A stretch of 16,261 bases of DNA from a virus (Duplodnaviria; Heunggongvirae; Uroviricota; Caudoviricetes). The translations under genes and the position numbers were made by a program. The stretch's first letter is position 1; each line of letters opens with the position of its first letter. Location: the IMG/VR virus record IMGVR_UViG_2529292919_000026; one strand, given 5' to 3'. The notes beneath the pieces were generated by a model that worked only from the letters and a program-made list of their open reading frames with translations, made no database searches and was not told where the DNA came from. Below are positions 307 through 16,261 of the stretch, piece after piece.

Positions 307-318
307 CGGAGACTGAAA

Positions 319-1152
319 ATGAACATCGAAAAAAGCAGATTAATTTCTGAGGCCGCCCCTCATCTGAACGCCTCTCTGGGCACAATTAACGGTAATGAAT
401 TTGCCGCAATTGTCCCGGTTATTCCTGGTCATATCGGTGGGCGTGAAACCAATATTGTTAGCGCAAAAGCGTTACACAAAGCGTTGGGCGTGGGAAAAGA
501 CTTCTCTACATGGATCACTGATCGCATCTCTGAATATGACTTCACCATTGGGCACGATTACTCAGTCCATAAAACAATTTCCCCAAATTTGGGGAAAAGC
601 CCGAATGGCGCGGCTTACAGCAAGATAAAGCACTCTGGCAGACCCGGCAAAGACTATCTGTTAAGTGTCGGAATGGCGAAAGAACTGGCAATGATCGAAC
701 GCAATGATCAGGGTCGCGCTATCCGCCGTTATTTCATCCAGTGCGAGGAAGAATTACAGCGTACCGTGCCTGAAATCGCCGCCCGCTATCGTCGCCAGCT
801 AAAAGCCCGTATTAGTGCCGCAAACAACTTTAAGCCAATGTGCGATGCGCTGAATATGGCCCGTGCCGAGATGGGGAAAATGACGCAGCAACACCACTAC
901 ACAAACGAGAGCAATATGATTTCTCGTATCGTTCTTGGTGGGCTAACTGCTAAGCAGTGGGCGCGGATAAATGGCTATTCTGGCGAACCTCGCGACCATA
1001 TGAACGCAGAACAGCTTGAGCACCTCTCATATCTCGAAAGCACCAATATCACGTTAATTGATATGGGCATGGAATATGAGCAGCGCAAAGGAGAACTCAC
1101 CCGCCTGTCGCAACGCTGGCTCGCCAAGCGTCTGGAGGCGCTCAATGTCTAA
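319..1152 (+). CDS. phage antirepressor, AntA-like N-terminal domain plus KilAC/ANT-like C-terminal domain
   Basis: 277-aa ORF with GGAGAC Shine-Dalgarno 6-8 nt upstream. C-terminal segment DYLLSVGMAKELAMIERNDQGRAIRRYFIQCEEEL matches the conserved AKELAM...RRYFI.CE signature I associate with phage antirepressor C-terminal domains. N-terminal part (IVPVIPGHIGGRETNIVSAKALHKALGV) resembles AntA-type domains. Family assignment is from memory. Confidence 0.7.
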   Translation: MNIEKSRLISEAAPHLNASLGTINGNEFAAIVPVIPGHIGGRETNIVSAKALHKALGVGKDFSTWITDRISEYDFTIGHDYSVHKTISPNLGKSPNGAAYSKIKHSGRPGKDYLLSVGMAKELAMIERNDQGRAIRRYFIQCEEELQRTVPEIAARYRRQLKARISAANNFKPMCDALNMARAEMGKMTQQHHYTNESNMISRIVLGGLTAKQWARINGYSGEPRDHMNAEQLEHLSYLESTNITLIDMGMEYEQRKGELTRLSQRWLAKRLEALNV

Positions 1153-1324: not shown

Positions 1325-2388
1325 TACCCGTCCAGAAGAAGACATTTTCACTGGCTGGTATGTCGCCAAAATCCAGCAATATGACGGCAAAGTCAGGCAT
1401 TAATACAGCAGATACAAGCAAAGTTTATCATTTGCTGGTGGTCGGAACGGATGCCTTAACCATACCAGAAATCTCGGGCGATGATATTAGCATTGAGAAG
1501 GTCAGCGGCTGCGCCAGAAAATTTCTGGTCGTAGATGATGTCTTCCGCTCGCGTAGTGACTCCACAAAAACCTTCATCCGCGCGCGTGACGTTAACGAAA
1601 TGAGCGCGATGTACTGTGCATCTGGTGCTTCCAATAGCGAGTTTTCGGAGTCCATAAAAAAGAGCTTGCCGTTATGCGGCAACACGGTTTATGGTTATAA
1701 GGCACCTCATAAAACGGGTGCCGGGATTGGCGTCCTGGTAAATCGAATGGCGACATATGACGCGCCGAGCGTCTTTTTTTATGTCGTAGGTCTGACTCAC
1801 CCATTTTTTGGGCGTTGGTGTATAATCCAGCGCCTTTGTCAATCAATGGTGGCTCAGGCAGGGGCTTCTTCGGAAGCGCCGGTATCCATTCGAGCCGGTT
1901 ACGCCAACCCTGTCTGGGCTACCACCAGCGAAATTGGCGTTTCCGGTGGTAGCGTTACATGCTATCGAATGGAGGCTGCCACATGCTGGCTACTACCCCT
2001 ACCCAAAAACCGCAATTTATCTGGATTATCGCCGCAGTTCGCCGCGATTGCCCGACAATTACCGCCAGAATTCATCATATTGCTGCCGAGTCTGAACGCG
2101 ATGCTCGCCGTTCTCTGGTGCGCGATCACGTCTGCTTTTTTGCTGGTCGTATCCGCATGGAGGTGGCACATGATTAAAACCTACGATGTGCATATGGATC
2201 CCCTCGAACGCACAAGCCAGATCATCACACTGACAGAAGTGATTAACGACATTCTGGTGAGCAACTCTCCCTCACGAGACGAAAGACTGAAGGCGTTACT
2301 CGCGATATTGGATCTCGCCGTTCGTGACGTTCATTTCCTGCTGGAAGGTGGCGAAATGCCAGTAAAAACGGGGGCAACCAATGAATAA
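1321..2388 (+). CDS. hypothetical protein (355 aa)
   Basis: 355 codons without a stop in ~50% GC DNA is unlikely by chance. Start is coupled to the preceding gene by ATGA overlap. No recognisable domain. Contains a strong internal GGAGG-N5-ATG at 2160-2172 (see findings). Confidence 0.5.
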
Positions 2389-3648: not shown

Positions 3649-3658
3649 GGATGGAACC

Positions 3659-3742: not shown

Positions 3743-3760
3743 TGTCTCTTATACACAAAT
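3742..3760 (+). repeat. IS left terminal inverted repeat (outside-end-like)
   Basis: CTGTCTCTTATACACAAAT, 17/19 match to Tn5 OE. Confidence 0.8.
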
Positions 3761-3906
3761 CCCCACCCGGGGATTTGTGATGTCTGTCAGTCTGCTTTAG
3801 GGGGACTCTTTCCATCCGGTAGTTTCCTTCCTCCCCGGCAGCGATTTTTTGAACTTTTTCCTCACCCGTTGATCTTCTCTTATATTTCATTTTCTTCGGG
3901 TCTGTT

Positions 3907-5280
3907 ATGGTACTTTCTGATTGTTATTCATGGGCTAACGAGCAGTTTGGACATGCCCGTCTCGGTGATCCGCGTCGTACACGACGCCTTGTGTCACTGG
4001 CCTCTTCTCTCGCTCAGCATGCAGGTCTTTCTATTGTGAAATCATCCCAGTCCACTGCTCAGGTTGAAGGTGCGTACCGCCTGATACGTAACCCGTCTGT
4101 GTCCCCGCAAGCCATTGCCGAAGCCGGATTTACCGCCACTGTAAGGGCATGTGAGGCTCATCCGCTGCTCCTCGCGCTGGAAGACACCACCACCATTAAC
4201 TTCAGTCACAGTACGGCATCTGATGACCTGGGGAATACCACCACTAACCCGAAGACGCGCGGGCTGCTGGCTCACTCTGTCCTGATGTACGCCCCCGACA
4301 GCGCCCTGCCAGTCGGTCTTATCGAACAGCAGCGCTGGAGTCGTGCCACGGACACCTACGGTGTTAAGCACCAGCGAAAAGAACGTCCCTATGAAGAAAA
4401 AGAAAGTTACCGCTGGCAGCAGGCTTCGGAGCGCATGGCCGAACGGCTGGGGGAGATACAGAAACGGGTAATCACTGTCTGTGACCGGGAAGCGGATATC
4501 TGGCATTACCTGCATTATAAAGTCAGCCACGGGCAGCGCTTCGTGGTGCGTGCAGCACAGAATCGCCGGCTGGAAGAAGCACCCGGCAAGCTCTTCGAAC
4601 TGCCGGAAGTCCTGGCAACCGCGGGAAGCCACACGCTGAATGTGATGCAAAAAGGCGGGCGGGCAGCCCGCCAGGCCCGGATGTTCATCAGTTACAGCGA
4701 AGTCAGCATAAAAAATCCCGACAACAGCGGCCAGGCGCTCCCGCTCACGTATGTCTGTTGCCGGGAGCAGGCAGAGGACGGCGCCTGCTGGCATCTGCTG
4801 ACGTCAGAAAAAGTGGCGAGTGCCGCCGATGCGCGACGTATCGTCAGCCATTACGAGCGACGCTGGCTGATAGAGGAATACCACAAGGCGTGGAAAAGTG
4901 GTGGTACATGTGTGGAATCGCTGCGAATGCAGACCCGGGATAACCTCGAGCGCATGGTGGTTATCAAGGCGTTTATCGCGGTGCGGGTGCTGGGCCTGCG
5001 GCAGGGCGGTATCAGTGAAGAAACACAAAATGACAGCTGTGAGAAAATACTGACGCCGACAGAGTGGAAACTGCTGTGGGTTAAGCTGGAAGGAAAACCG
5101 CTTCCGTCACAGATGCCGACACTGAAATGGGCCTGTCTGAAACTGGCGAAACTGGGGCGATGGCATGACAGCAAACGCACCGGTCGCCCCGGTTGGGTAG
5201 TCATGTGGGATGGCTGGTTCAGACTTCAGGATATGGTTGAGGGTTACCTGGTGATGAAGTCTCTTGATCAGGAGATCTGA
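3907..5280 (+). CDS. tnp: IS4-family DDE transposase, Tn5 Tnp-like (457 aa)
   Basis: Clear collinear similarity to Tn5 transposase: GDPRRT.RLV, EGAYR.IRNP.VS, L(A/L)(I/L)EDTT, VCDREADI, RFVVR, RW.IEE(F/Y)HKAWK(T/S)G and DNLERMV...A(V/I)R.L.LR blocks, including the catalytic D, D, E positions. Stop codon lies inside the right terminal repeat. Confidence 0.85.
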   Translation: MVLSDCYSWANEQFGHARLGDPRRTRRLVSLASSLAQHAGLSIVKSSQSTAQVEGAYRLIRNPSVSPQAIAEAGFTATVRACEAHPLLLALEDTTTINFSHSTASDDLGNTTTNPKTRGLLAHSVLMYAPDSALPVGLIEQQRWSRATDTYGVKHQRKERPYEEKESYRWQQASERMAERLGEIQKRVITVCDREADIWHYLHYKVSHGQRFVVRAAQNRRLEEAPGKLFELPEVLATAGSHTLNVMQKGGRAARQARMFISYSEVSIKNPDNSGQALPLTYVCCREQAEDGACWHLLTSEKVASAADARRIVSHYERRWLIEEYHKAWKSGGTCVESLRMQTRDNLERMVVIKAFIAVRVLGLRQGGISEETQNDSCEKILTPTEWKLLWVKLEGKPLPSQMPTLKWACLKLAKLGRWHDSKRTGRPGWVVMWDGWFRLQDMVEGYLVMKSLDQEI

Positions 5281-5291
5281 TCAAGAGACAG
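5273..5291 (-). repeat. IS right terminal inverted repeat (inside-end-type)
   Basis: Reverse complement is CTGTCTCTTGATCAGATCT, 19/19 with Tn5 IE. Confidence 0.85.
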
Positions 5292-5558: not shown

Positions 5559-5922
5559 AAATGCAGAAATGGCGCTTAGCTCCGCAATCGGAGAGCAGGT
5601 GGCAAAGATTGCTGGTGCTGTGTGGATTCATAACCTTCATTCTACTGGTGAAGAGAAAATGGCAATTCAGACGCCAGAGGGACGCACTATTACTACATCT
5701 CTGAAGCCGTCAGATGTTTGTGATCTGATTTGCGCATTCATGTACCCAGCAATGAGGACTGTCCACGGCGATAAGTGGAAACTTGCGACAACCGCTGAAT
5801 TTGATATGTGGCTAAACAATGATGGCATGCTGACTGATTACGGAATAACCAAGTGGCAGATGCTGGTTAGCCATATCGCAAACGCTATAGACCACGTGGG
5901 GTACGGTGATGCGAAACATTGA
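5551..5922 (+). CDS. hypothetical protein (123 aa)
   Basis: GGAGG at 5541-5545, five nt before ATG 5551. Start overlaps the stop of the split gene (ATGCGTGA). Its 3' end overlaps the primase start. Confidence 0.55.
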   Translation: MRENAEMALSSAIGEQVAKIAGAVWIHNLHSTGEEKMAIQTPEGRTITTSLKPSDVCDLICAFMYPAMRTVHGDKWKLATTAEFDMWLNNDGMLTDYGITKWQMLVSHIANAIDHVGYGDAKH

Positions 5923-8665
5923 TCTTATCCGTCAGGTTATCAGTGCGTCTGAAAACAACTGGCCTCATGTGCTGGGCTGCCTGAACATAAATGTCCCTGA
6001 CTCTCCGCGCCGTCATGCTCCCTGCCCTGCATGTGGGGGCAAAGATCGATTCCGGTTCGATGACAACGGGCGCGGTAGCTTCATCTGTAATCAGTGCGGC
6101 GCTGGTGATGGGCTGGATTTAATTAAACGCGTAAATAACTGCGACACAACAGAGGCGGCGCTGCTTGCCGCTGATGTTCTGGGTATTGATTACCGGACAA
6201 CGGAAACACCAGAAGCCACCAGCCAGAAACGGGAACAACTGGAAACCGAGCGCCAGCAACGCGAACAGGAGCGCCTGAAAAGGGCGGAGAAGGACGAACA
6301 ACAAAGACGGGATACGTTTTCCCGTCAGTTTGATGACATGCGCAGAAAGGCTGTAAACGGCAAATCTGATTATCTGGTTGCGAAAGGGGTAGGTGATTTT
6401 ACATTCCCCGTGTTGCCCGATGGATCTCTGTTGCTGGCGCTGGTGGATAAATCCGGCGCAGTCACAGCAGCACAGACTATTACCTCACATGGTGAAAAAA
6501 GACTCCTGACAGGTTCAGCAAAGCGGGGGGCATATCACGCCATAAACGCACCAGAAACAACACAGAGCATCTTAATCGCAGAAGGGCTGGCAACGGCATT
6601 ATCTGCCCATTTAATTCGTCCAGAGGCGCTGACAGTGGCGGCGATTGATGCCGGGAACCTGTTATATGTCGCCCAGGTACTGCGGGATAAATTTCCTTCA
6701 GCACAAATCATCATTGCTGCGGATAACGACCACAGCGAAGGAAGACAAAACACGGGGAGAATAGCAGCAGAAAAAGCAGCTTTATCTGTTTCTGGATGGG
6801 TGGCATTACCCCCGACAGGTCACAAAGCAGACTGGAATGATTACCACCAAAAACACGGCATTAAATGCGCCACAGAAGCGTTCAATAAGTCAATGTACCA
6901 ACCACAGGGTAATGGCGTGAAACAGGAGCCACAGACCATTGAGGGAAGCGATTTTAAGGTTATGGATACCGACCCACTGAAACCAAGAATAGAAAGCCGC
7001 GAGGATGGTATTTATTGGGTATCTCCGAGAGCTGACAGCCAGAGTGGAGAAATCATCAATAACGAAAGCTGGTTATGTTCTCCGTTAAGCGTTATCGGTA
7101 CTGGCAGAGACGATAAAGACCAGTATCTCATTCTTCGCTGGCTGTCGTTTGGTTCTGAAACGCCGACAACCGCTGCCATTCCACTGGCTGATATTGGTGA
7201 ACGTGAAGGATGGCGCACACTTAAAGCTGGTGGGGTAAATGTCACGACCAAAAGCAGCCTCAGAGCAATACTGGCAGACTGGCTACAACGCAGTGGCTCT
7301 CGTGAATTGTGGCGTGTTGCTCATGCCACTGGCTGGCAATGCGGAGCGTACATCATGCCTGATGGGGAAATCATCGGAACACCTGAAAATCCTGTGCTGT
7401 TCAGCGGGAGAAGCTCAGCCGCAGCCGGATATACCGTCTCAGGGAGCGCGCAAAGCTGGCGTGATAACGTGGCGCGTCTGGCCTTTGGTAACTATTCAAT
7501 GATGACCGGGATCGGCGCAGCACTGGCAGCACCATTGATTGGGCTGGTGGGCGCTGACGGGTTCGGCATTCATTTCTATGAGCAGTCGAGCGCAGGTAAG
7601 ACCACCACGGCAAACGTGGCGAGCAGCTTATACGGCAACCCTGATTTACTGCGGCTGACGTGGTACGGAACCGCGCTGGGGCTGGCAAATGAGGCCGCCG
7701 CCCACAATGACGGACTAATGCCGCTTGATGAAGTTGGTCAGGGCGCTGATCCTGTCAGCGTTTCACAGTCTGCCTATGCGTTATTTAACGGTGTAGGGAA
7801 ACTGCAAGGCGCTAAAGATGGTGGAAACCGGGATCTAAAACGCTGGCGTACAGTGGCAATCAGCACCGGAGAAATGGATTTAGAAACATTTATCGCTACT
7901 TCCGGGCGAAAAACCAAAGCCGGGCAACTGGTGCGACTGCTGAATATTCCGTTGAGTAAAGCAGTACGCTTTCACGATTACCAGAACGGAAAACAGCACG
8001 CAGACGCACTGAAAGACGCTTACCAGCATCACCATGGCGCAGCCGGGCGTGAGTGGATTAAATGGCTGGCAGACCACCAGCAACAGGCTATTAAAACTGT
8101 TCGTGATTGCGAAAGCAGATGGAGAAGCCTGATCCCACCCGATTATGGTGAGCAGGTTCACCGTGTAGCCGCGCGATTTGCCATTCTGGAGGCCGCATTG
8201 TTGTTAGGCGAGGTTGTAACAGGCTGGGATGCTCAGACATGCCGTGATGCGATACAGCACAGCTATAACGCATGGTTGCGCGAGTTCGGCACAGGTAACA
8301 AAGAGCATCAGCAGATTATTGAACAAACGGAGGCATTTCTTAATGCCTATGGGCTTAGCCGTTTTGCACCATTTCCATACAGCCCGGCAGATTTGCCCAT
8401 CAAAGATTTAGCCGGATACCGTCAGCGTGGAGAACATGACGAAAGCCCAATGATTTTCTACACATTCCCGGCCACATTTGAAAAGGAGATCGCATGTGGT
8501 TTCAACGCAAAACAGTTTGCTGAAGTGTTGAAAAAAGCCGGGATGCTAACCCCACCAAACAGCGGTCGTGGATACCAAAGAAAATCACCACGTATTCAGG
8601 GACGACAAATAAACGTTTATGTACTCAATTACCAGCCAGGAGATTATAACTCATCTGAAGAATGA
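5909..8665 (+). CDS. primase, zinc-ribbon + Toprim + DUF927/P4-alpha-like NTP-binding domain (about 918 aa)
   Basis: N-terminal CPACGGKDRFRF...FICNQCG zinc ribbon; Toprim-like acidic motifs (ILIAEGLATA, IIIAADNDHSEG); P-loop-like EQSSAGKTT near residue 555. Immediately followed by an iteron array. ATG at 5909 is preferred over the GTG at 5906 reported by the track. Confidence 0.8.
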   Translation: MRNIDLIRQVISASENNWPHVLGCLNINVPDSPRRHAPCPACGGKDRFRFDDNGRGSFICNQCGAGDGLDLIKRVNNCDTTEAALLAADVLGIDYRTTETPEATSQKREQLETERQQREQERLKRAEKDEQQRRDTFSRQFDDMRRKAVNGKSDYLVAKGVGDFTFPVLPDGSLLLALVDKSGAVTAAQTITSHGEKRLLTGSAKRGAYHAINAPETTQSILIAEGLATALSAHLIRPEALTVAAIDAGNLLYVAQVLRDKFPSAQIIIAADNDHSEGRQNTGRIAAEKAALSVSGWVALPPTGHKADWNDYHQKHGIKCATEAFNKSMYQPQGNGVKQEPQTIEGSDFKVMDTDPLKPRIESREDGIYWVSPRADSQSGEIINNESWLCSPLSVIGTGRDDKDQYLILRWLSFGSETPTTAAIPLADIGEREGWRTLKAGGVNVTTKSSLRAILADWLQRSGSRELWRVAHATGWQCGAYIMPDGEIIGTPENPVLFSGRSSAAAGYTVSGSAQSWRDNVARLAFGNYSMMTGIGAALAAPLIGLVGADGFGIHFYEQSSAGKTTTANVASSLYGNPDLLRLTWYGTALGLANEAAAHNDGLMPLDEVGQGADPVSVSQSAYALFNGVGKLQGAKDGGNRDLKRWRTVAISTGEMDLETFIATSGRKTKAGQLVRLLNIPLSKAVRFHDYQNGKQHADALKDAYQHHHGAAGREWIKWLADHQQQAIKTVRDCESRWRSLIPPDYGEQVHRVAARFAILEAALLLGEVVTGWDAQTCRDAIQHSYNAWLREFGTGNKEHQQIIEQTEAFLNAYGLSRFAPFPYSPADLPIKDLAGYRQRGEHDESPMIFYTFPATFEKEIACGFNAKQFAEVLKKAGMLTPPNSGRGYQRKSPRIQGRQINVYVLNYQPGDYNSSEE

Positions 8666-8684
8666 GCTTCTTCATGTGCGTAGA

Positions 8685-8730
8685 AAAGGTGTTGGTTCAG
8701 TTGGTTCAGTTGGTTCAATTTGTAAAGAGT
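8685..8730 (+). repeat. 46-bp segment perfectly inverted-repeated at 15899-15944
   Basis: AAAAGGTGTTGGTTCAGTTGGTTCAGTTGGTTCAATTTGTAAAGAG is the exact reverse complement of 15899-15944. Confidence 0.9.
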
Positions 8731-8802
8731 ATTGTTTTATAAGGATTTTATTCTTTTTATTGAACCAACACTGAACCAACAACACGGTATTTTGAACCAA
8801 CA
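8692..8802. promoter_or_regulatory. iteron array, candidate replication origin (copy A)
   Basis: Three tandem GTTGGTTCA 9-mers (8692-8718), an AT-rich ~43-bp spacer, then three spaced inverted copies TGAACCAAC (8762-8770, 8773-8781, 8794-8802). Sits directly 3' of the primase gene. Confidence 0.65.
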
Positions 8803-8862
8803 CAATGTGACTGAATTGATGCGCACAACACCTGGCTGGCATCAGAGAGTGTTTTACGAGAC

Positions 8863-8883
8863 TTTCGTAAAATCCTGTGTACA
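8863..8883. promoter_or_regulatory. palindromic operator-like site TTTTACGA-N5-TCGTAAAA
   Basis: 8-bp perfect inverted arms seen directly in sequence. Confidence 0.4.
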
Positions 8884-8905
8884 AGGGCGTGACGTTTTTG
8901 AAAGT

Positions 8906-8922
8906 GAGCACTACGAAATTTT
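8906..8922. promoter_or_regulatory. palindromic operator-like site CTACGAAA-T-TTTCGTAG
   Basis: 17-bp near-perfect palindrome sharing the TTTCGTA half-site with the site 25 bp upstream. Confidence 0.4.
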
Positions 8923-9122
8923 CGTAGTTCAAAAAACAGCCTCTGAGAAGTTGTTATGCCTGTTCAGCAAACCATCCGCATAGCTGATCGCGAATCAAAT
9001 TACCAATGGAGCCAGAATCAAGGGCAGAACTGAAAAGCGCCTGCCGTGAAGAGTAATGCGATACCATAAATATAGTTTTTAGAGTCCATAAAAAACCTGT
9101 CAAAACCTGACACACAGAACGA

Positions 9123-9154
9123 TGCCACCAGCTACTGAGCGGTGGCATTTTTTT
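9123..9154 (+). terminator. rho-independent terminator (orphan, no upstream + strand CDS)
   Basis: Stem TGCCACC/GGTGGCA with 11-nt loop, followed by seven T residues (9148-9154). Confidence 0.55.
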
Positions 9155-9249
9155 GTGCTATTTGTTTCATATTTTGCAATTACGATGATGAATATTGCGA
9201 TTTGTGAAACTATAATAACTGTTGTTTTATACAGTTCTAAGGGGGCGTT

Positions 9250-9411
9250 ATGGCTATTTCAGTAAATCCGGTATTGATAAGTGAGAAGCAAATGGAAGCG
9301 ATAAAGAAAATTCAGGAAGAGCAGCGTAAAAAATCAGGAATTGGAGTAGCGCCAACTCTGCATGAAATTGCACGAGGGTTAATAGATAAGGCGCTGGCAG
9401 GCTGTATGTGA
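9250..9411 (+). CDS. small hypothetical protein (53 aa), below the track's length cut-off
   Basis: AAGGGGG Shine-Dalgarno 6 nt upstream of ATG 9250; TATAAT hexamer at 9211-9216. Sequence MAISVNPVLISEKQMEAIKKIQEEQRKKSGIGVAPTLHEIARGLIDKALAGCM, possibly a small DNA-binding protein. Confidence 0.45.
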   Translation: MAISVNPVLISEKQMEAIKKIQEEQRKKSGIGVAPTLHEIARGLIDKALAGCM

Positions 9412-9427
9412 AAATGGATGGCATCGC

Positions 9428-9889
9428 ATGGAACTAAAATTTATTGATAACCCTGTGCGATTACAGGCCTTTCTTAACGAGCCAGGCAATACCGAAAATA
9501 TTGTTGAGCCGGGGCACACGTACTACATCAAGCCTGATGCGGTATATCTCGGCATCTACGAAGGATTAGTGCTGGCTGGCGTTCATGAAGTGCGTAACTT
9601 CTGGCATAGCGTTGTTGAATGCCATGCGGTGTACGACCCCGGATTCCGTGGTGAATATGCACTGCAAGGGCATCGATTATTCTGCAAATGGCTTCTCGAA
9701 AACTCACCATTCCTTAACAGCATCACCATGGTTCCTGACACCACCAAATACGGACGGGCAATTATCCGTTTGCTTGGCGCTACCCGTGTTGGTCACCTTG
9801 ATGATGCTTATATCAGATGTGGTAAACCCGTCGGCGTAACGCTTTATCAGTTAACTCGGCAACAATATAAGGAATTCAGCGAATGTTAA
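9428..9889 (+). CDS. protein at the gene-14 position of a P22-like ejection-protein cluster (153 aa)
   Basis: Assigned by position and size only: it directly precedes three coupled ejection-protein-like genes, and its stop overlaps the next start. Confidence 0.35.
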   Translation: MELKFIDNPVRLQAFLNEPGNTENIVEPGHTYYIKPDAVYLGIYEGLVLAGVHEVRNFWHSVVECHAVYDPGFRGEYALQGHRLFCKWLLENSPFLNSITMVPDTTKYGRAIIRLLGATRVGHLDDAYIRCGKPVGVTLYQLTRQQYKEFSEC

Positions 9890-10560
9890 TTACCCATATA
9901 GCTCATAAACATCTCAATCGTGCCGTATACGAAAAAGGCGGTGATGGTGGTGCCTCTAAAGCTCAGGCGAAGGCCCAGCAGCAGGCAATTGATTTGCAGC
10001 GCGAGCAGTGGAATACGGTGATGAATAATCTCAAGCCGTATGCAGAAGTCGGATTGCCTGCTTTACAACAACTGCAAGGACTGATGACTCTGGAAGGGCA
10101 GAATAAAGCCGCGAATGATTTCTTTGGTTCTGGTTTATATAAAACACAGGCAGATCAGGCCCGTTATCAGAACCTTGTCTCAGCAGAAGCTACCGGGGGG
10201 CTTGGCTCAACAGCTACCAGTAACCAGTTATCTTCCATTGCGCCCATGCTTTATAACAATTGGCTCAGTGGGCAAATGCAAAATTATGGAAACCTGCTAA
10301 ATGTCGGGATGAATGCGGCATCAGGGCAGGCAACGGCAGGGCAAAACTACGCCAATAATACCGGACAACTCTTGCAGGGGCTTGGCGCTATTCGTGCAGG
10401 TCAGGCGCAGCAGCCATCCAGTCTTGCGCGTGGTATTGGTGGGGCAGCATCAGGCGCTTTAGCGGGTGCGCAACTTGGTTCCGTTGTTCCTGGAATAGGA
10501 ACTGCGGCCGGCGCTATTGGTGGTGGGCTTATTGGTCTTGTTGGGGGGCTTGGATTCTAA
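9883..10560 (+). CDS. P22 gp7-like DNA ejection (internal virion) protein (225 aa)
   Basis: Size close to P22 gp7 (about 229 aa from memory); EKGGDGG segment near the N terminus; Gln/Ala/Gly-rich low-complexity body; glycine-zipper hydrophobic C terminus GGLIGLVGGLGF. First of three coupled genes in P22 order. Confidence 0.55.
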   Translation: MLITHIAHKHLNRAVYEKGGDGGASKAQAKAQQQAIDLQREQWNTVMNNLKPYAEVGLPALQQLQGLMTLEGQNKAANDFFGSGLYKTQADQARYQNLVSAEATGGLGSTATSNQLSSIAPMLYNNWLSGQMQNYGNLLNVGMNAASGQATAGQNYANNTGQLLQGLGAIRAGQAQQPSSLARGIGGAASGALAGAQLGSVVPGIGTAAGAIGGGLIGLVGGLGF

Positions 10561-11981
10561 TGGCGACATGGCAACTTGGCGGGCTGCCTAGCATGGCACC
10601 GCAAAATGATAATGCTCCTCGTTCTTCCGTTCCTCAGCCTGTGCAGTATCAGCAGCAGCCAAACGTAGGTTTAATGGCGCTACAGGGGCTAAGAGGCGTT
10701 GCTGAGATTAATCAGCAGGCACGTCAACAACAGCGTAAATCAGAGTTTCAGAAAGCATATGCCGGGGCTTTTGAGTCTGGAGACAGAAACAAAATGCGCA
10801 GTCTTATTTCTGAGTATCCAGAAGAATTTGAAAGCGTTCAGAAAGGGATGGGCTTTATTGATGACGACCAGAGAAATTCTATTGGTCATCTTGCGACTAG
10901 TGCTCAAATCGCATCTTCGCTCGGAACTGGGGCATTTGGAAAATTCATAGCAGATAACGAAGATGAAATGCGTCGCTTGGGAATTTCTCCTGAGTCTGTT
11001 GCCGAAATGCATGTTAATGATCCACAGGGATTCCAGCGGCTTGCTGGTAGTATGGCACTGTTTTCTCTCGGTCATGAGAAGTATTTCGATATCAAAGATC
11101 AAATGGAAGGTCGGGATATTGAGCGAGGCAGGCTGGCAGAGACAATCCGCAGCAATCAGGCTGGCGAAGCACTTCAGGCGAGAGGGCAGGATATTAGCCG
11201 AGCAAATGCGTTAACGTCAGCATATGCACCAACAGCAGCAATGCAGAATTACAATCAGTACGCTCAAATGTTAAAGGCGGATCCAGAGGGGGCGGCGGCA
11301 TTTGCGGCAGCGGCTGGAATTAATACAAACGCCAAAAAATTAATGAGTGTTAGAGAAAACGATGATGGCACTGTCACAAAATACTACACAGACGGAAGTG
11401 AAGAGCAGGGAAAACTAAACCAGCCAATATCTGGAGATGGGTTTCGTCCAATAGCTTTGCCAACAGCCCAAAAGATCATGGAAAAGTCGCCAGAAGGGGC
11501 TAAAAAAGCTGCTGGATTTGCATACAGGGTTAGGGATGCTCTTGATTCAATAGATACACTGAAAGACCAGCTTAGCCCACAGCGAGTGGCGATCATTAAT
11601 AATGCTTTGGGTAATGGGACGCTGGCTAACTTAACGCTCAGCCCAACAGAGCAGCAATACGTTGTTAATGCTAATGACGCAATAATGGCAATACTCCGTC
11701 AGGAAACAGGGGCAGCTATCGTACCTGCTGAAATGTCAAAATATTATCAAATGTATTTCCCTCAGCCTGGCGACTCCACAAAAACCATTGATACCAAGCG
11801 CCGGAAGATGGAAAACCAGTTCAATTCGCTGAAAGCTGCTTCTGGTCGAGCTTATGATGCTTTGCGGGTTATTTCAGCAGTTGACAGAGGAACGTCTTCT
11901 TCGTCGCAGACATTGCCGCAATCTGAGCAGGTATCACAGCCAGCAGCCAGCAGTAACTTTTCTTCACTATGGGGTGATTAA
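10560..11981 (+). CDS. P22 gp20-like DNA ejection protein (473 aa)
   Basis: Size close to P22 gp20 (about 471 aa from memory). Start overlaps the upstream stop (TAATGG) and the stop overlaps the next start. Confidence 0.55.
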   Translation: MATWQLGGLPSMAPQNDNAPRSSVPQPVQYQQQPNVGLMALQGLRGVAEINQQARQQQRKSEFQKAYAGAFESGDRNKMRSLISEYPEEFESVQKGMGFIDDDQRNSIGHLATSAQIASSLGTGAFGKFIADNEDEMRRLGISPESVAEMHVNDPQGFQRLAGSMALFSLGHEKYFDIKDQMEGRDIERGRLAETIRSNQAGEALQARGQDISRANALTSAYAPTAAMQNYNQYAQMLKADPEGAAAFAAAAGINTNAKKLMSVRENDDGTVTKYYTDGSEEQGKLNQPISGDGFRPIALPTAQKIMEKSPEGAKKAAGFAYRVRDALDSIDTLKDQLSPQRVAIINNALGNGTLANLTLSPTEQQYVVNANDAIMAILRQETGAAIVPAEMSKYYQMYFPQPGDSTKTIDTKRRKMENQFNSLKAASGRAYDALRVISAVDRGTSSSSQTLPQSEQVSQPAASSNFSSLWGD

Positions 11982-14086
11982 TGGCTAAAGCATGGAAAGA
12001 TGTTATCGCCTCTCCACAGTATCAGGCGTTAGCACCAGAACAAAAAGCGCAGGCTCAGGAGCAATACTTCAATGAAGTCGTTGCCCCGCAAGCCGGAGAA
12101 AGTGTAGAGCAGGCTAAGCAGGCTTTTTATGCTGCCTATCCACTACCATCAACGAATGAAATAGACCGATCCCAATCAGCAACTCAAAATATTCAACATA
12201 CATCATCTGATAATTCTCTTGCGTCAGGGTATGCAAAGTTAGCTACTCAGCAAAGAGAGGGGCTTGAGCGTTCAGCAGAACAGGGAGCCAGTCTTGGGGC
12301 TGCGATGCGCGATGCTATAACAGGCGAAAGCCGAATGACTTCAGAGATGGAGAGACTGCAAAATGTCGCCTCTGCCCCAGAATTGAACTCACTAAGCATG
12401 GATGCCCTAAAGGCTGGATGGTCCCAACTTTTCGGCTCTGACGCGTCTCAGGAAAAGATTCTTCAGGGAATGGGGGCGACATTAAGGCAGGATGAGAAGG
12501 GGAATACTATCGTTTCTCTGCCATCAGGTGATTATGCCCTGAACAAGCCGGGTTTATCACCGCAAGACCTGACTTCGTTTCTTGCTAATGCGTTGGCGTT
12601 TACACCAGCGGGCAGGGCTGGAACGGTGCTTGGTGCCATAGGAAAATCAGCAGCTACAGATTTAGCACTACAGGGAGCCACCAGCCTTGCTGGTGGAGAA
12701 GATATTGATCCGTTACAAACGGTAATTTCTGCTGGCATTGGTGGTATTGGTAAGGGGCTGGAAAATACAGCGAGTGCGGTTTCGAGGGCTGTTCGTGGTG
12801 ATATGTCGCCTGAAGCAAAGGCTGCTGTCGACTTTGCATCGGAAAGAAATCTGCCGTTAATGACCAGTGACATGCTGAAAGATAAAACCTTTATGCAGAG
12901 TCAGGCTCAGACATTAGGCGAAAGAGTTCCTTTTTTTGGAACCGGTAAGAATCGGCTGAATCAACAACAAGCACGAGAAAATTTAGTCAGAACATTTAGC
13001 GATGGTCTGGGTGGCATTTCTGATAAACAGCTTTATGAATCTGCGACTAAAGGGCAACAAAAATTCATTGAGGCAGCAGGAAAGCGATATAACCGCATAA
13101 TTGACGCTATGGGGGATACCCCTGTCGATCTCTCAAACACGGTAAAAGCTATCGACAATCAGATTGCCGTGTTAAGCCGCCCGGGCAAATCTCAGGATAG
13201 AGCCGCGGTAAAAGTCTTGCAGCAATTTAAAGACGATATCACCAGCGGACCAAATGACCTGCGCCTGGCGAGGGAAAACAGAACCGATCTTCGAAAGCGA
13301 TTTATTGCGTCATCTGACACTGTTGATAAAGATACGCTCCAGAAAGCCAGCGATATTATCTACAAGGCATATACGGCGGATATGAAAAAAGCCGTAGCCA
13401 AAAATCTTGGAGCAGACGAAGCCATTAATATGGCAAGGGTTGATCGCTCATGGTCTAAATTCAATGACATGATGGGAAGAACGCGCGTTCAAAAGGCAAT
13501 AGCCAGCGGCAAGGCCACGCCTGAGGATGTAACAAAACTCGTTTTTAGCCAAAGCCCATCAGAACGTTCTCAGCTTTACAGGCTTCTGGATGACAATGGT
13601 AGGCAAAACGCACGAGCAGCCATAGTTCAGAATGCTGTAGATAAGGCGACTGATCCGTCTGGAAATATCAGTGTTGAGAAGTTTATTAATGCGTTACACC
13701 GGAACAGGAAGCAATCAGCAACTTTCTTTAAAGGCGTACATGGGAAGGAACTGGACGGCGTTATTAAATACCTCAACGATACAAGACACGCGGCAAAAGC
13801 GAACGTTCAAAACTTAAATGGTCAGCAGCTTTATGGATTGTTAGTTGGTGGTGGCATCATAAACGCAGCAGTATTAGCGGGGATGCTAAAAACGGCTGCG
13901 TTTGTTGTTCCTGCTGCTGGTGCCGTAGGCGGAGCAGCGAAGGCATACGAAACCCCTGTTATACGAAATGCCTTGTTACGTCTGGCAAATACGCCAAAAG
14001 GTAGCACAGCATATGACAGAGCGATCAGTACGGTCACACAATCGCTCACCAGAGTCGCACAGGCATCACAAAAAGAAGCTCAATAA
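11981..14086 (+). CDS. P22 gp16-like DNA ejection protein (701 aa)
   Basis: Third coupled gene; large Ala/Gln-rich protein with hydrophobic Gly/Ala-rich segment near the C terminus (GGGIINAAVLAGMLKTAAFVVPAAGAVGGAA). Longer than P22 gp16 (about 609 aa from memory). Confidence 0.5.
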   Translation: MAKAWKDVIASPQYQALAPEQKAQAQEQYFNEVVAPQAGESVEQAKQAFYAAYPLPSTNEIDRSQSATQNIQHTSSDNSLASGYAKLATQQREGLERSAEQGASLGAAMRDAITGESRMTSEMERLQNVASAPELNSLSMDALKAGWSQLFGSDASQEKILQGMGATLRQDEKGNTIVSLPSGDYALNKPGLSPQDLTSFLANALAFTPAGRAGTVLGAIGKSAATDLALQGATSLAGGEDIDPLQTVISAGIGGIGKGLENTASAVSRAVRGDMSPEAKAAVDFASERNLPLMTSDMLKDKTFMQSQAQTLGERVPFFGTGKNRLNQQQARENLVRTFSDGLGGISDKQLYESATKGQQKFIEAAGKRYNRIIDAMGDTPVDLSNTVKAIDNQIAVLSRPGKSQDRAAVKVLQQFKDDITSGPNDLRLARENRTDLRKRFIASSDTVDKDTLQKASDIIYKAYTADMKKAVAKNLGADEAINMARVDRSWSKFNDMMGRTRVQKAIASGKATPEDVTKLVFSQSPSERSQLYRLLDDNGRQNARAAIVQNAVDKATDPSGNISVEKFINALHRNRKQSATFFKGVHGKELDGVIKYLNDTRHAAKANVQNLNGQQLYGLLVGGGIINAAVLAGMLKTAAFVVPAAGAVGGAAKAYETPVIRNALLRLANTPKGSTAYDRAISTVTQSLTRVAQASQKEAQ

Positions 14087-14090
14087 CTGG

Positions 14091-14113
14091 TTAGCCATGG
14101 ATGGCTAATTTTT
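14091..14113 (+). terminator. intrinsic terminator between convergent genes
   Basis: Perfect inverted repeat TTAGCCAT-GG-ATGGCTAA followed by TTTTT. The stop codon of the minus-strand membrane-protein gene lies inside the stem. Confidence 0.55.
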
Positions 14114-14524
14114 GTTCTTTGCTCTCATCCATAGGTAAAGAAGGGAAAGAACAAGACAAAAAACAGAGAATAGATAACCTACCTCATATGGTGCGCCAAA
14201 AAAATTAGCCATTGATACGGGCAAAAAAGCTGAAGCGATCAAAATTGAAAGGCAAAAAATAAGCCCAGTAATATAGTTTATTAAATTCTTAAATGAGAAA
14301 CGTTTTGCTTGATTTACGGTCTTAACGAACGATCGCTTAACGACGGATAAAAGCAAATAGATGGCGACAGTTGCTAATGCCCCTTTCCACCAGTCTGGAT
14401 ATAGTTTTGCGACAATCAGACCAAGGAAAACCATGATGACAGCCTGAGCATTCACACCAACCCTCCCTTTAGCTTTGTTTAGAATGGCAATCATCATATA
14501 TCCAAGACATGGCATTTGGTACAT
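14105..14524 (-). CDS. small multi-pass inner-membrane protein at the sieA position (superinfection-exclusion-like)
   Basis: Several hydrophobic helices (VIMVFLGLIVAKL, ALATVAIYLLLSVV, ITGLIFCLSILIASAFL, LFSVFCLVLSLLYLW). Convergent with and immediately after the gp16-like gene, as sieA is in P22-like phages. Start uncertain: a strong AAAGGGAGGG sits 5 nt before an in-frame GTG at 14455. Confidence 0.5.
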   Translation of the reverse strand: MYQMPCLGYMMIAILNKAKGRVGVNAQAVIMVFLGLIVAKLYPDWWKGALATVAIYLLLSVVKRSFVKTVNQAKRFSFKNLINYITGLIFCLSILIASAFLPVSMANFFGAPYEVGYLFSVFCLVLSLLYLWMRAKNKN

Positions 14525-14564
14525 AGCTTGGGTCGGGATTTCAAATCCGATCCCCGTTGATGGG

Positions 14565-14960
14565 GCCGTTACAGTACGCGCATATCCTCTTTATGTGAAA
14601 CAGGAAGATTTTTCTGATATCACTGCCACAGCAAAACACCAATTTCGTGACCAGTACGCGCGCGAGGGGTATCAGTTGCAAAAAATTTTGCAACTGCGTC
14701 CGACCAGTACGCACACGATGGCGGGGAGCACCATAAAACTGTTCTCTACATAAGACAGAGTGGTGGTGATGTGTTGATTATCGGCGTATATGCGCACAGG
14801 ACGCGCTATGACGATGTTTTATGCGGGTACACCAATCACATGTATCTGGTGTGATCAATCGCGTTACATGACATCTCATGTTGTGCTGGTGATTATCACG
14901 ACGTTCTGAATCTGGCCTTTGCCTGATATTTTGCGACAAGTACGCGCGCGTAGCATCGAC
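14565..14960. repeat. cluster of short repeats: AGTACGCGCGCG-type motifs with adjacent TTTTGCGAC-type motifs
   Basis: AGTACGC(G/A)C(G/A)CG at 14572, 14653, 14705 and 14939; TTTTGC(G/A)AC at 14405, 14686 and 14929; perfect 12-bp palindrome TACGCGCGCGTA at 14941-14952. Confidence 0.6.
14673..14696. promoter_or_regulatory. palindromic operator-like site CAGTTGCAAAA-AA-TTTTGCAACTG
   Basis: 11-bp perfect inverted arms seen directly in sequence, in the noncoding region upstream of the minus-strand membrane-protein gene. Confidence 0.45.
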
Positions 14961-15179: not shown

Positions 15180-15258
15180 GTCTGATCCTCACCTATCGTC
15201 ACCACCTGATGGTGTATAAAGGTATTAGCCCAAGCAGCTTTCCAATGGGCACTCATGT

Positions 15259-15714: not shown

Positions 15715-15816
15715 ATCAGTGAGTAATATCCATACAGTATACCACTGTATAACACTGTTATACGCTCAAATATCAGCCAGAAAATAACAGACCAATCACA
15801 AATCTATCGCTGTGTT

Positions 15817-15937
15817 GTTGGTTCAGAGCTGGGCTGTGTTGGTTCAAAATGAGTTGATGTTGGTTCAATATTTTAGAAAAAACACAATAAAAACAACGCT
15901 CTTTACAAATTGAACCAACTGAACCAACTGAACCAAC
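15817..15937. promoter_or_regulatory. iteron array, candidate replication origin (copy B, inverted relative to copy A)
   Basis: Three spaced GTTGGTTCA 9-mers (15817-15825, 15838-15846, 15859-15867), an AT-rich spacer, then three tandem TGAACCAAC (15911-15937). Confidence 0.6.
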
Positions 15938-15973: not shown

Positions 15974-16261
15974 ATGATAAAGGACAGGAAAGCTGAAGAG
16001 CTGGAGTCAAAAGGGCTATACCGGAGAGCTGCCGCACGATGGGCAGAAGTCATGATGCTGGCAGATGGCGATAAAGAACGTGAACATGCAGCAAACAGAC
16101 GCTCTGAATGTATCCGTAAGGCGGCACGCCCACCAGCAACTACAGACAGATTCGGAGATTTAAGACAGGCAGTTAAGCGGACTCATTCGGCTCTTGGTAT
16201 GGATGAGGAAGCGAGAGGGTACTTCAGGCGTTATCGCGATAAAGATTGCCAGAGACAGTAA
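15974..16261 (+). CDS. PerC-like small transcriptional regulator (95 aa)
   Basis: N-terminal KAEELESKGLYRRAAARWAEVM resembles the conserved N-terminal signature I recall for PerC/Pch-family activators found on prophages and P4-like islands. GAGAGG Shine-Dalgarno and TATAAT at 15955-15960 upstream. Recalled from memory, not searched. Confidence 0.45.
   Translation: MIKDRKAEELESKGLYRRAAARWAEVMMLADGDKEREHAANRRSECIRKAARPPATTDRFGDLRQAVKRTHSALGMDEEARGYFRRYRDKDCQRQ

Follow-up and report, generated by a model that had tools for sequence, protein, structure and literature searches.

Phage satellites are known to exploit their helpers by capsid resizing, by terminase redirection or with capsids of their own. 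Some virion components are encoded by cf-PICIs themselves, and SaPIbov5 copies the packaging signal of its helper. In P22, gp20 is the periplasmic-conduit protein and gp16 the membrane-associated conduit protein; to our knowledge, no satellite has been shown to supply proteins that move DNA across the envelope of the recipient cell. The closest described system is the phage-inducible chromosomal island EcCIMP1 (E. coli MP1; Pick, Stadel & Raivio, ISME J 2025; PMC11773190), whose excision, circularisation and transduction occur only in the presence of its P22-like helper Kapi1 (PMC11773190). Kapi1 transfers the island at a low level of about 5e3 particles per ml, the Kapi1 titre from induced lysogens is unchanged, and the island genes named 'DNA transfer/DUF2824' were proposed to have a packaging role (PMC11773190).

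The window analysed here, i.e. the whole stretch of 16,261 nucleotides of virus record IMGVR_UViG_2529292919_000026 (Caudoviricetes), represents most of an integrative phage satellite of about 18 kb. It is a further member of the EcCIMP1 family, for which P22-type ejection genes in a satellite are already published. Its closest relative is an element of E. coli strain 755 (99.7-100% identical), which extends from the integrase to PerC, is inserted between yicC and dinD and is flanked by imperfect direct repeats of about 24 bp lying about 17.95 kb apart. The integrase, AlpA and the att repeats are located outside the window and are present in the strain 755 element, which falls into the 15-20 kb range of PICIs; the replicase with its adjacent origin lies within the window.

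No terminase, portal, coat, tail or lysis genes were found among the window ORFs by Pfam and PHROG scans, and the complete strain 755 element is annotated without terminase, portal, coat and tail genes. The absence of head and tail genes reported in the first-pass annotation thus applies to the complete strain 755 element as well, and the ejection proteins are the sole virion-related genes of the element (Pfam/PHROG scans of the window ORFs and whole-element annotation). Of the three explanations offered there without a preference, the satellite with ejection proteins of its own agrees with this bounded int-to-PerC island from the family of the transducible EcCIMP1. A heavily deleted prophage was rejected because of the att repeats, the P4-like replication and immunity backbone and the intact, selected ejection genes; the same architecture occurs at at least two integration sites and in at least three genera, which likewise excludes it.

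EcCIMP1 shares with this element, in the same order, alpA, hyp, AntA, DUF4222, Ash/Icd, hypothetical genes, the DUF927 primase, the 53-aa ORF, DUF2824, gp7, gp20 and gp16, with PerC further on. The nucleotide identity amounts to 95.6-98.8% over window positions 1-3742 and 5292-10720, the AntA/AntB-type antirepressor is conserved, and the same pac-like terS fragment is carried. In contrast, EcCIMP1 is located at a tRNA-Thr site by proA and has another integrase, whereas the closest relative of the window is found at yicC/dinD. Furthermore, the window segment 10721-14529 (remainder of gp20, gp16 and the downstream gene) is swapped: the two gp20 proteins share 48% identity over the first 187 aa only, and the EcCIMP1 gp16, a protein of 906 aa with a lytic transglycosylase domain, gave no BLASTP match to that of the window. 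The window copy also differs by an IS50-like insertion with IS50-type ends and a 9-bp duplication ACCAGCGGC, whose transposase contains the Pfam domains Tnp_DNA_bind, DDE_Tnp_1 and Dimer_Tnp_Tn5. This insertion is absent from the strain 755 element and from EcCIMP1 and does not belong to the satellite itself.

Table 1. Features identified in the 16,261-nt window
Feature	Position	Strand	Characteristics
AntA/AntB-type antirepressor, backbone gene	319..1152	+	Pfam AntA 2.7e-21; PHROG anti-repressor 2.9e-37
107-bp terS fragment, P22-type, starting exactly at pac site	1469..1575	-	sequence identity
P4-type immunity RNA region	1702..1929	+	Rfam isrK + C4
IS50-like insertion sequence	3743..5291	+	IS4/Tn5-family transposase at 3907-5280
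P4-alpha-type primase/helicase (satellite replicase)	5906..8665	+	919 aa; Pfam Zn_Ribbon_Prim, Toprim_3, DUF927
Origin-like iteron cluster	8691..8801	.	six GTTGGTTCA copies, AT-rich spacer
Conserved 53-aa ORF, first in ejection module	9250..9411	+	homologues across satellites
gp14 homologue (DUF2824)	9428..9889	+	153 aa; Pfam DUF2824 1.5e-61
gp7 ejection-protein homologue	9883..10560	+	225 aa; Pfam P22_gp7 6.6e-73
gp20 ejection-protein homologue	10560..11981	+	473 aa; Pfam Inj_translocase 3.1e-58 at aa 34-213
gp16 ejection-protein homologue	11981..14086	+	701 aa; PHROG 770 2.1e-161
Small membrane protein at P22 sieA position	14105..14524	-	139 aa; ~3-4 hydrophobic segments
Weak second pac-like sequence GAAGATTTTTCTGATATCACTG	14604..14625	+	6 mismatches to P22 pac
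Second iteron cluster, like P4 crr region	15817..15937	.	3 direct + 3 inverted repeats
PerC/ANR-family regulator, satellite right end	15974..16261	+	Pfam PerC 3.1e-33

The four overlapping plus-strand genes of the first-pass annotation were recovered with their coordinates and lengths (Table 1), and their order 14-7-20-16 was borne out by the ORF table and the Pfam and PHROG families. The overlaps between successive ORFs (7, 1 and 1 nt) are consistent with translational coupling. The match to PHROG 770 ('DNA transfer protein') spans residues 19-700 of the gp16 homologue, for which no Pfam match was obtained in the Pfam copy scanned, and the gp20 homologue matches PHROG 917 over its full length (1.7e-112). 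BLASTP comparison with the P22 proteins resulted in identities of 56% for gp7, 23% for gp14 (annotated as 'head morphogenesis' in P22), 38% over 239 aa for gp20 and 30% over 482 aa for gp16; taken with the profiles, the family matches are far above chance. The gp7 and gp20 homologues agree in size with their P22 counterparts, as had been claimed (P22 gp7 229 aa, gp20 471 aa and gp16 609 aa; PMC8954989), and the expected Gly-rich C terminus was found in the gp7 homologue.

Families, order and overlaps correspond to the operon 14-7-20-16(-sieA) of Lederbergvirus (P22, Sf6, HK620, CUS-3, Kapi1). The convergent small membrane gene after gene 16 and the mosaic exchange at the same junctions are shared as well, the gene 20/16 junction being 86-96% identical to P22, ST64T and Sf6. 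In these phages, however, the portal, scaffold, coat, gp4, gp10 and gp26 genes lie upstream, whereas the ejection genes of the satellite follow, as noted before, the primase and the origin, with the 53-aa ORF in between. In a species-representative scan, canonical head genes were located upstream of gp7 in 28 of 29 enterobacterial loci, the exception being an Escherichia satellite.

Homologues of the 53-aa ORF precede the ejection genes in the E. coli, Citrobacter and Serratia satellites in all variants, with a dN/dS of 0.03-0.05. Its structural model (pLDDT 77.6) consists of an extended N terminus and two helices and had no fold match in structure comparison; the ORF possibly encodes a small regulator.

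The remaining backbone resembles that of P4, with which the element shares the alpha-type primase (PHROG DNA primase 5.6e-178), Ash and Icd-like genes, isrK, a C4/CI-type antisense RNA and a pair of separate iteron clusters similar to ori and crr. Both RNAs scored above the Rfam gathering score (isrK at 1702-1779, 67.1 bits; C4/CI-type RNA at 1842-1929, 79.5 bits) and fall within an ORF annotated as 'Ash' (1321-2388), in which Pfam Phage_ASH covers aa 124-232. In the origin cluster, three direct and three inverted repeats of GTTGGTTCA surround the AT-rich spacer, and the second cluster cross-matches it; in total, 12 copies of GTTGGTTCA were observed in the window versus 0.12 expected. Unlike P4, which depends on a P2-like helper, the satellite belongs to a P22-like helper type, and no sid, psu or delta homologues were found among the scanned window ORFs. 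The Gram-negative PICIs EcCICFT073 and EcCIEDL933 are alike in the integrase, AlpA, the primase with adjacent origin, a PerC-family gene, the size of 15-20 kb and helper-dependent induction (shown for EcCIMP1). They differ in that their helper is a cos lambdoid phage, here a pac-type P22-like podovirus, and in that the satellite is without Rpp, capsid-morphogenesis and terminase genes and instead carries virion-internal proteins and a pac copy. In contrast to cf-PICIs, the internal ejection proteins are the only virion components, without capsid, portal or terminase. The regulator at the right end also matches NCBIfam ANR_neg_reg (5e-6, under the cutoff of that model), and the PerC homologue of EcCIMP1 represses LEE1 (PMC11773190).

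Of 5426 complete E. coli genomes, 240 contain the primase-gp14 junction and 299 the gp20-gp16 cassette at a coverage of at least 80%; homologous satellites with the same ejection module occur in Citrobacter and Serratia. Between E. coli and Citrobacter, gp14, gp7, gp20 and gp16 show a dN/dS of 0.07-0.09 at a dS of 1.2-2.0 by the simple Nei-Gojobori method, for which a dS above 1 is near saturation. In the E. coli, Citrobacter and Serratia satellites compared, the ejection ORFs are intact and free of frameshifts, and the cross-genus identity is 80-85% for the ejection proteins versus 68% for the primase. These values strongly indicate that the ejection module is under strong purifying selection in related satellites. 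Some satellite variants possess only gp20 and gp16, without gp14 and gp7, and gp16 is truncated in one relative, from which it follows that the module is not needed for maintenance. Abi genes are located nearby in related satellites.

The individual ejection genes have different closest relatives. The gp14 homologue shares 98% of its residues with the EcCIMP1 copy and 84% with that of Kapi1, and the gp7 homologue is 99% identical to the EcCIMP1 copy. For gp20, 84% identity to the satellite copies in CUWW11 and LR14 was found, with 52% to the best isolated-phage match, and the EcCIMP1 gp16 is 83% identical to a Citrobacter satellite copy and at most 52% to any isolated phage. Judged by these identities, the ejection alleles appear to form a satellite lineage, in which the EcCIMP1 gp16 and the window gp20 are nearer to satellite than to phage copies. 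The gp16 homologue of the window shows 67% identity to phages N7 and HZ41 and 90% to its counterparts in complete P22-like E. coli prophages; together with the downstream ORF, its gene reaches 93% nucleotide identity to such prophages, which points to recent exchange. At least two gp20-gp16 cassette types and three architectures could be distinguished, all of them intact. The variants with only gp20 and gp16 and the segment swapped relative to EcCIMP1 show that these two genes travel as a pair, in agreement with the published requirement that the two be cognate (PMC10461980).

In addition to the ejection genes, the window carries a candidate packaging signal. The terS fragment aligns with nt 268-374 of the terS gene (489 bp) of P22-like coliphages at 91% identity and with P22 nt 4-110 at 87%; P22 pac is annotated at nt 4-25, corresponding to gene 3 nt 268-289. 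Within the fragment, a 28-nt pac-like motif (1548-1575) similar to the P22-type pac site was identified, in which 16 of 22 positions match P22 pac (6/22 differ) and 5/22 differ from the nearest coliphage terS. All five E. coli-type satellites examined carry the fragment, the motif had no matches in shuffled sequence, and it occurs eight times in the Citrobacter and four times in the Serratia satellite, in non-coding DNA. The second pac-like sequence, GAAGATTTTTCTGATATCACTG, is alone not significant, as about 0.2 such matches are expected per window (binomial estimate); its conservation extends to all of the E. coli satellites examined, and it lies where the Citrobacter and Serratia satellites carry pac-like arrays. 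The terS of Kapi1 is of a different type and shows no similarity to the satellite pac copy. For this reason, the pac-copy model predicts another, better helper, and efficient helpers would be phages with a P22-type TerS.

The small membrane ORF downstream of gp16 is 88% identical to 109-aa ORFs located 3' of gene 16 in two complete P22-like prophages; the corresponding membrane protein occupies the sieA position in genuine prophages of this type. SieA proteins are of types A, B and C and have the C-terminal motif FnRYPnEAnnFNK (PMC10461980), which is absent from the 139-aa ORF. BLASTP gave an E value of 0.74 against P22 SieA and no match against HS1 SieA, and no match was found in the phage collection, PHROGs or PADLOC. 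The earlier designation 'sieA-like' was therefore dropped and the ORF rejected as a SieA homologue, since it shares with SieA only position and membrane character. The sister satellite CUWW11 has a true SieA homologue (34% identity to type-B SieA, E 2e-9, NRYPGEA motif).

Taken together, the satellite probably supplies its own ejection proteins and a pac copy to exploit a P22-like helper. Instead of genes that alter capsid size or redirect terminase, its helper-exploitation module would comprise the pac-site copy or copies and the ejection operon (53-aa ORF, gp14, gp7, gp20, gp16), with the small membrane protein next to it at the sieA position. Lytic growth of a P22-like (Lederbergvirus) helper would lead to excision and replication of the satellite, as shown for EcCIMP1. 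The helper terminase would then recognise the satellite pac copy and fill helper procapsids by the headful from satellite concatemers, while satellite gp7, gp20 and gp16 would be co-assembled in trans into these procapsids. Such loading is feasible, as each P22 ejection protein can enter procapsids on its own via its N-terminal part and whole foreign sets work in P22 (PMC8402733, PMC10461980); in gp7 and gp20, the procapsid-binding N-terminal regions are the best-conserved parts. With satellite ejection proteins in the procapsid, the trans-envelope DNA conduit would be set by the satellite and not by the helper alone. The payoff is likely a more reliable or broadened DNA delivery, which could extend to cells in which a resident P22-like prophage stops injection at the level of gp16/gp20. 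As a possible cost, non-cognate gp16 and gp20 mixed in one capsid could harm rather than help.

A more specific version, which we put forward tentatively and hold to be possible at best, is that satellites re-arm the helper capsid with a cognate gp20-gp16 pair differing from that of the helper, gp7 and gp14 being optional, and thereby pass blocks like SieA, which act on the C-terminal parts of gp16 and gp20. The satellite might in this way enter lysogens of potential helpers, and the rapid swapping of the gp20-gp16(-sieA-position) cassette among satellites and phages could, speculatively, be the footprint of an arms race.

Alternatively, the ejection homologues and the membrane protein could be exclusion or defence cargo that is not packaged and blocks the injection of P22-like phages in the resident cell, which we consider rather unlikely; they might conceivably serve as decoys or occupy envelope sites. 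EcCIMP1 adds superinfection immunity against Kapi1 in lysogens (PMC11773190), although P22 SieA is sufficient on its own (PMC10461980) and the conserved procapsid-binding regions of gp7 and gp20 disagree with an unpackaged role. A membrane protein gene follows gp16 at the sieA position, which in CUWW11 is occupied by the true SieA homologue, but this gene is on the opposite strand, like in the phages, and the ejection genes are co-oriented with and 3' of the helper-induced replication genes. The sieA-like protein as the premise of this explanation is weak. Defence genes are frequent in satellites, with Abi genes near in relatives, yet ejection proteins are part of no known defence and PADLOC gave no matches.

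Interference with the helper is a common and generally known trait of satellites (SaPIs, P4, PLEs), and satellite ejection proteins competing for procapsid sites could lower helper infectivity. As gp16 and gp20 must be cognate, a mixture of satellite and helper proteins would poison helper virions: no infectious yield is obtained when gp16 and gp20 of P22 and Sf6 are combined in a non-cognate manner (PMC10461980), and the identity to the Kapi1 copies is only 26% for EcCIMP1 gp20 and 24% for EcCIMP1 gp16. We judge this to be improbable, since Kapi1 titres are unaffected by EcCIMP1 (PMC11773190) and satellite-carrying particles would be poisoned equally, the ejection proteins being loaded before the DNA.

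A functionless remnant of a decaying P22-like prophage, or neutral passenger DNA from helper recombination, is extremely unlikely despite the 93% identity to complete prophages, the truncated gp16 of one relative and the IS in the window copy, given an att-bounded island without other virion genes, a module kept in three genera at a dN/dS of about 0.08 without frameshifts, at least two cassette types and three architectures that are all intact, and EcCIMP1 as an active relative.

Given the strong selection on it, the full ejection module very probably serves the satellite in some way. The satellite family is common: among 5426 complete E. coli genomes, at least 240-299 are carriers, and relatives occur in Citrobacter and Serratia. 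Compared to the EcCIMP1 paper, the gp20-gp16 swap, the cross-genus selection, the pac-site copies and the SieA status are new. The pac-site copy gives a concrete, testable answer to the question of how EcCIMP1 is packaged, and EcCIMP1/Kapi1 is a ready system for testing. If the supply of ejection proteins changes which cells are entered, not only the phage but also the satellite would determine the host range of transduction, and this would matter because regulators of virulence loci (PerC/ANR) and defence genes are among the cargo of these islands.

The four ejection ORFs reported in the first-pass annotation could be verified in position and size by the ORF table and by Pfam, PHROG and BLASTP searches, as could their location downstream of a primase and origin (see table). 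Consecutive ejection ORFs overlap by 7, 1 and 1 nt. The comparison with the P22 proteins revealed similarity to all four, with BLASTP identities of 56% for gp7, 38% for gp20 (239 aa), 30% for gp16 (482 aa) and 23% for gp14. The nearest gp16 of an isolated phage is that of the coliphages N7 and HZ41 (67% identity over 90% of the protein). No NCBIfam entry matched the ejection proteins of the window, and a PDB sequence search gave a solved structure for none of the four.

The whole window was found at a coverage of at least 80% in 163 of 5426 complete E. coli genomes (megablast); of the hundreds of genomes with a match, a handful were inspected for genomic context. In E. coli strain 755, an element 99.7-100% identical to the window is located between yicC and dinD, two core genes, with imperfect 24-bp direct repeats (CGTGTACATAnnGGTGTACATAAT) at its ends, about 17.95 kb apart. 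Its gene order begins with integrase, a hypothetical gene, an AlpA-like HTH gene, a further hypothetical gene, AntA, DUF4222, Ash, an Icd-like gene and six small genes, and continues with primase, a 53-aa ORF, gp14, gp7, gp20, gp16, three reverse-strand ORFs and PerC. This complete order includes no gene for a terminase, portal, scaffold, coat or tail protein or for lysis, in agreement with the earlier observation that the ejection genes occur without head or tail genes. An ordinary or deleted P22-like prophage is rejected on the basis of the element boundaries and the gene content. Furthermore, true prophages with the same gp16 have a full head cluster upstream: in two complete prophages of the P22-like type, from E. 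coli BEN5202 and from a fox isolate, the canonical portal, scaffold, coat, gp4, gp10, gp26, gp14 and gp7 genes precede it. The heavily deleted prophage initially considered is thus contradicted, and the satellite proposed beside it is the right reading, as the element is bounded, lacks structural genes and has the backbone of EcCIMP1.

Elements of this kind, ejection-type genes included, were already published in 2025. EcCIMP1 is a 19,963-bp island at tRNA-Thr of E. coli MP1 (Pick, Stadel & Raivio, ISME J 2025; PMC11773190), which is excised, circularised and transduced only with the P22-like (Lederbergvirus) prophage Kapi1 present or induced; its mobilisation also needs its own integrase and alpA (PMC11773190). 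The authors likened EcCIMP1_017-019 to proteins for DNA transfer and to DUF2824 and suggested a possible packaging role (PMC11773190); this paper alone was found in a literature search for ejection proteins in satellites. The MP1 region has the gene order of the window, including DUF2824, gp7, gp20 and gp16 downstream of the primase, and is 95.6% identical to it over 1-3742 and 98.8% over 5292-10720. The alignment breaks off at 10720 and restarts at 14530: whereas gp14 and gp7 are 98-99% identical, the identity of gp20 is 48% and confined to the first 187 aa, and the EcCIMP1 gp16 (906 aa, with a transglycosylase domain) gave no BLASTP match to that of the window. The window differs in its integration site and in a swapped gp20-gp16 cassette. 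New here are the cross-genus conservation, the pac-site copies and a sibling satellite bearing SieA.

Features of the window and of related satellites (positions refer to the window unless another satellite is named)
Feature	Position	Strand	Description
terS fragment with pac copy	1469-1575	-	107 bp
isrK RNA	1702-1779		Rfam; inside ORF annotated 'Ash family protein'
C4/CI-type antisense RNA	1842-1929		Rfam; inside ORF annotated 'Ash family protein'
IS50-like insertion	about 3743-5291		Tn5-type transposase, 457 aa; not in strain 755
Primase	5906-8665		919 aa; Zn-ribbon/Toprim/DUF927
Iteron cluster 1	8691-8801		six GTTGGTTCA copies, three direct and three inverted
53-aa ORF	9250-9411		head of the ejection module
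gp14 homologue	9428-9889	+	153 aa; Pfam DUF2824 (P22 gp14 family), 1.5e-61
gp7 homologue	9883-10560	+	225 aa; Pfam P22_gp7, 6.6e-73
gp20 homologue	10560-11981	+	473 aa; Pfam Inj_translocase (gp20 N-terminal domain), 3.1e-58
pac-like stretch	11768-11789	-	within gp20
gp16 homologue	11981-14086	+	701 aa; PHROG 770 'DNA transfer protein', 2.1e-161, nearly full length
139-aa ORF	14105-14524	-	about 3-4 hydrophobic segments; sits where P22 has sieA
Weaker pac-like copy	14604-14625		position equivalent to the Citrobacter and Serratia arrays
151-aa ORF	15259-15714	-	weak PHROG match only
Iteron cluster 2	15817-15937		six GTTGGTTCA copies, three direct and three inverted
PerC-family gene	15974-16261		
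SieA homologue, CUWW11 satellite (L040)	15179-15793	-	directly after gp16
28-nt motif, window			one copy
28-nt motif, Citrobacter satellite (L043)	15346-15850		8 same-strand copies within 500 bp downstream of gp16
28-nt motif, Serratia satellite (L047)	13961-14196		4 same-strand copies downstream of gp16
Other cargo, K. michiganensis satellite (L050)	9001-11649		headed by a 53-aa ORF homologue

Because isrK, a C4/CI-type RNA and a second iteron cluster were found, the immunity and replication backbone is P4-like. The two iteron clusters, similar to ori and crr of P4, are about 7 kb apart, one on each side of the ejection module. The RNA matches suggest that an element which was published as a PICI has RNA immunity of the P4 type, and the 'Ash family protein' annotation over this stretch may be partly spurious. 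Homologues of Sid, Psu and Delta could not be detected among the window ORFs by Pfam and PHROG scans. The IS50-like insertion, with the ends CTGTCTCTTATACACA and CTGTCTCTTGATCAGATCT and a 9-bp target duplication (ACCAGCGGC), interrupts a small backbone gene (phrog_37628 family), of which strain 755 and EcCIMP1 have intact copies. The PerC-family gene, which is located beside the 151-aa ORF, also has a weak match to the ANR family of negative regulators, in agreement with the LEE repression reported for its EcCIMP1 homologue.

The ejection module is mosaic. The gp16 gene and the next ORF of the window have 93% nucleotide identity to the BEN5202 and fox-isolate prophages, whose gp16 is 90% identical at the amino acid level. 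From the ejection set, the satellite of E. coli LR14 (yicC/dinD) carries gp20 and a truncated gp16 only, and that of CUWW11 (tRNA-Thr) gp20 and an intact gp16 (701 aa) only, with a DUF5906 primase instead. Homologous satellites elsewhere were found with the conserved 53-aa ORF as a probe: in Citrobacter, the order is primase, SSB, ProQ, a 329-aa gene, the 53-aa ORF, DUF2824, gp7, gp20 and gp16, and in Serratia, primase, the 53-aa ORF, gp20 and gp16, with every ejection ORF intact in both. This ORF is a better probe for satellites than the gp7 profile, as a gp7-profile scan of species-representative genomes gave one satellite-type locus, a single hit explained by the use of one genome per species and narrow peptide patterns.

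Between the E. coli and Citrobacter satellites, simple Nei-Gojobori estimates gave a dN/dS of 0.07-0.08 for gp14 (dS 1.3), 0.07 for gp7 (dS 2.0), 0.07-0.09 for gp20 (dS 1.2) and 0.08 for gp16 (dS 1.2), with dS near saturation in these cross-genus pairs; within E. coli, the satellite-satellite values are 0.12-0.30. The cross-genus identity is 80-85% for the ejection proteins versus 68% for the primase. These values indicate that the module, though mosaic, is kept under selection, and they speak against the rival explanation of a neutral remnant. The EcCIMP1-type gp16 shares 83% identity with the copy of the Citrobacter satellite but no more than 52% with any entry among 50,697 phage records; the gp20 of the window is 84% identical to other satellite copies and at most 52% to any phage record (best match APSE). 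Since both are closer to satellite copies than to phages, long-lived satellite lineages with occasional cassette exchange with phages are indicated. Among the satellites compared, gp20 and gp16 always move as a pair, which fits the published requirement that gp16 and gp20 be a cognate pair, with gp7 exchangeable alone (PMC10461980).

The 'sieA-like' label of the 139-aa ORF was the only wrong part of the original observation. SieA could be ruled out, as the ORF has no significant similarity to SieA of P22 (type A) or HS1 (type B), lacks the conserved C-terminal SieA motif and has no match in the 50,697 phage records, PHROGs or PADLOC. The 109-aa ORFs at the same position in two complete P22-like prophages share 88% identity with it; it therefore arrived with the gp16 cassette. 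A true SieA homologue was found in the CUWW11 satellite (34% identity to type-B SieA, E 2e-9, NRYPGEA motif present); Leavitt et al. had, in the cases that they studied, found sieA in P22-like prophages alone (PMC10461980). A second rival explanation regards the ejection module itself as exclusion cargo; PADLOC defence-system models gave no match for the four ejection proteins.

The 53-aa ORF is the constant head of the module and shows very strong purifying selection (dN/dS 0.03-0.05). Its predicted structure (moderate confidence) consists of two helices and an N terminus in extended conformation, similar to ribbon-helix-helix proteins, an idea unconfirmed by the fold search, with no Foldseek match in the PDB and no family match. 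Upstream of the module (8806-9427), a similarity search of the phage collection gave nothing relevant and a strong sigma-70 consensus promoter was not found; a candidate promoter region of the ejection operon is 9160-9250. In the Klebsiella michiganensis satellite, the homologue heads other cargo, namely a phrog_7694 protein of 605 aa, similar at its C terminus to injection transglycosylase or tape-measure proteins, and then a protein of 168 aa that has a TerS-like N terminus; the arrangement could represent an analogous module directed at another helper type.

The terS-derived stretch has 91% identity to nt 268-374 of the 489-bp terS of the P22-like coliphages CurroJimenez_Bas106, Dewey, Louie, IME10, HZ41 and E212, and 87% to nt 4-110 of P22. 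As the P22 record places the pac site at nt 4-25, corresponding to gene 3 nt 268-289, the homology starts exactly at the pac site, of which 16 of 22 positions are matched. The fragment is located about 125 bp upstream of isrK and runs antisense to the 'Ash' ORF, within an N-terminal extension that is poorly conserved. All five E. coli-type satellites examined carry it, and together with satellite-specific flanks it was found in 484 of 5426 genomes. Without the flanks, the 107 bp further match the terS genes of prophages elsewhere among the genomes; these prophages are potential helpers. In E. coli NCTC9040 (NZ_LR134247.1), a RefSeq 'DNA-packaging protein' overlaps ash in the satellite, an annotation that appears to derive from this fragment.

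A 28-nt motif (GAAGRTTTWTNNGNNRTCRYTAYGCGAG; P22 pac and the six following bases) occurs at 1548-1575 in the window, is repeated in the Citrobacter and Serratia satellites and had no match in shuffled sequences in any case; it is partly derived from the same sequences, and the array counts mainly show repetition in non-coding DNA. A gene of 109 aa that was annotated over the Citrobacter array is probably an artefact. Within gp20 of the window, a stretch with 4 mismatches to the 22-bp pac-like core of the satellite (about 0.001 expected by a binomial estimate) is common to satellites with this gp20 allele. The terS of Kapi1 was rejected as the origin of the pac copy, being a different terS without similarity to the satellite; this mismatch may be why the reported transfer of EcCIMP1 is low.

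From these comparisons, a role of the satellite ejection proteins in virions is proposed. The P22-type terminase of the helper would start headful packaging at the pac copy, the ejection operon would be expressed in the lytic cycle, and its products would be loaded in trans into helper procapsids, giving transducing particles a satellite-specified conduit. Such loading is plausible because, in P22, each ejection protein enters procapsids without the help of the others or of the portal, via N-terminal regions and the scaffolding protein, capsids form without them, and complete foreign sets are functional in P22 (PMC8402733, PMC10461980). In the satellite gp7 and gp20, conservation is highest in the N-terminal regions used for this entry in P22. 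A remaining rival is that the module serves in helper poisoning. The gp7, gp20 and gp16 proteins of EcCIMP1 and Kapi1 share only 24-57% identity. Since SieA escape has been mapped to C-terminal regions of gp16 and gp20 (PMC10461980) and the EcCIMP1 proteins are only 26% (gp20) and 24% (gp16) identical to those of Kapi1, it is an attractive idea that the satellite set might bypass injection blocks in recipient lysogens. With the cross-genus conservation, the pac copies and the SieA-bearing sibling, the function of ejection proteins in satellites is now directly testable.
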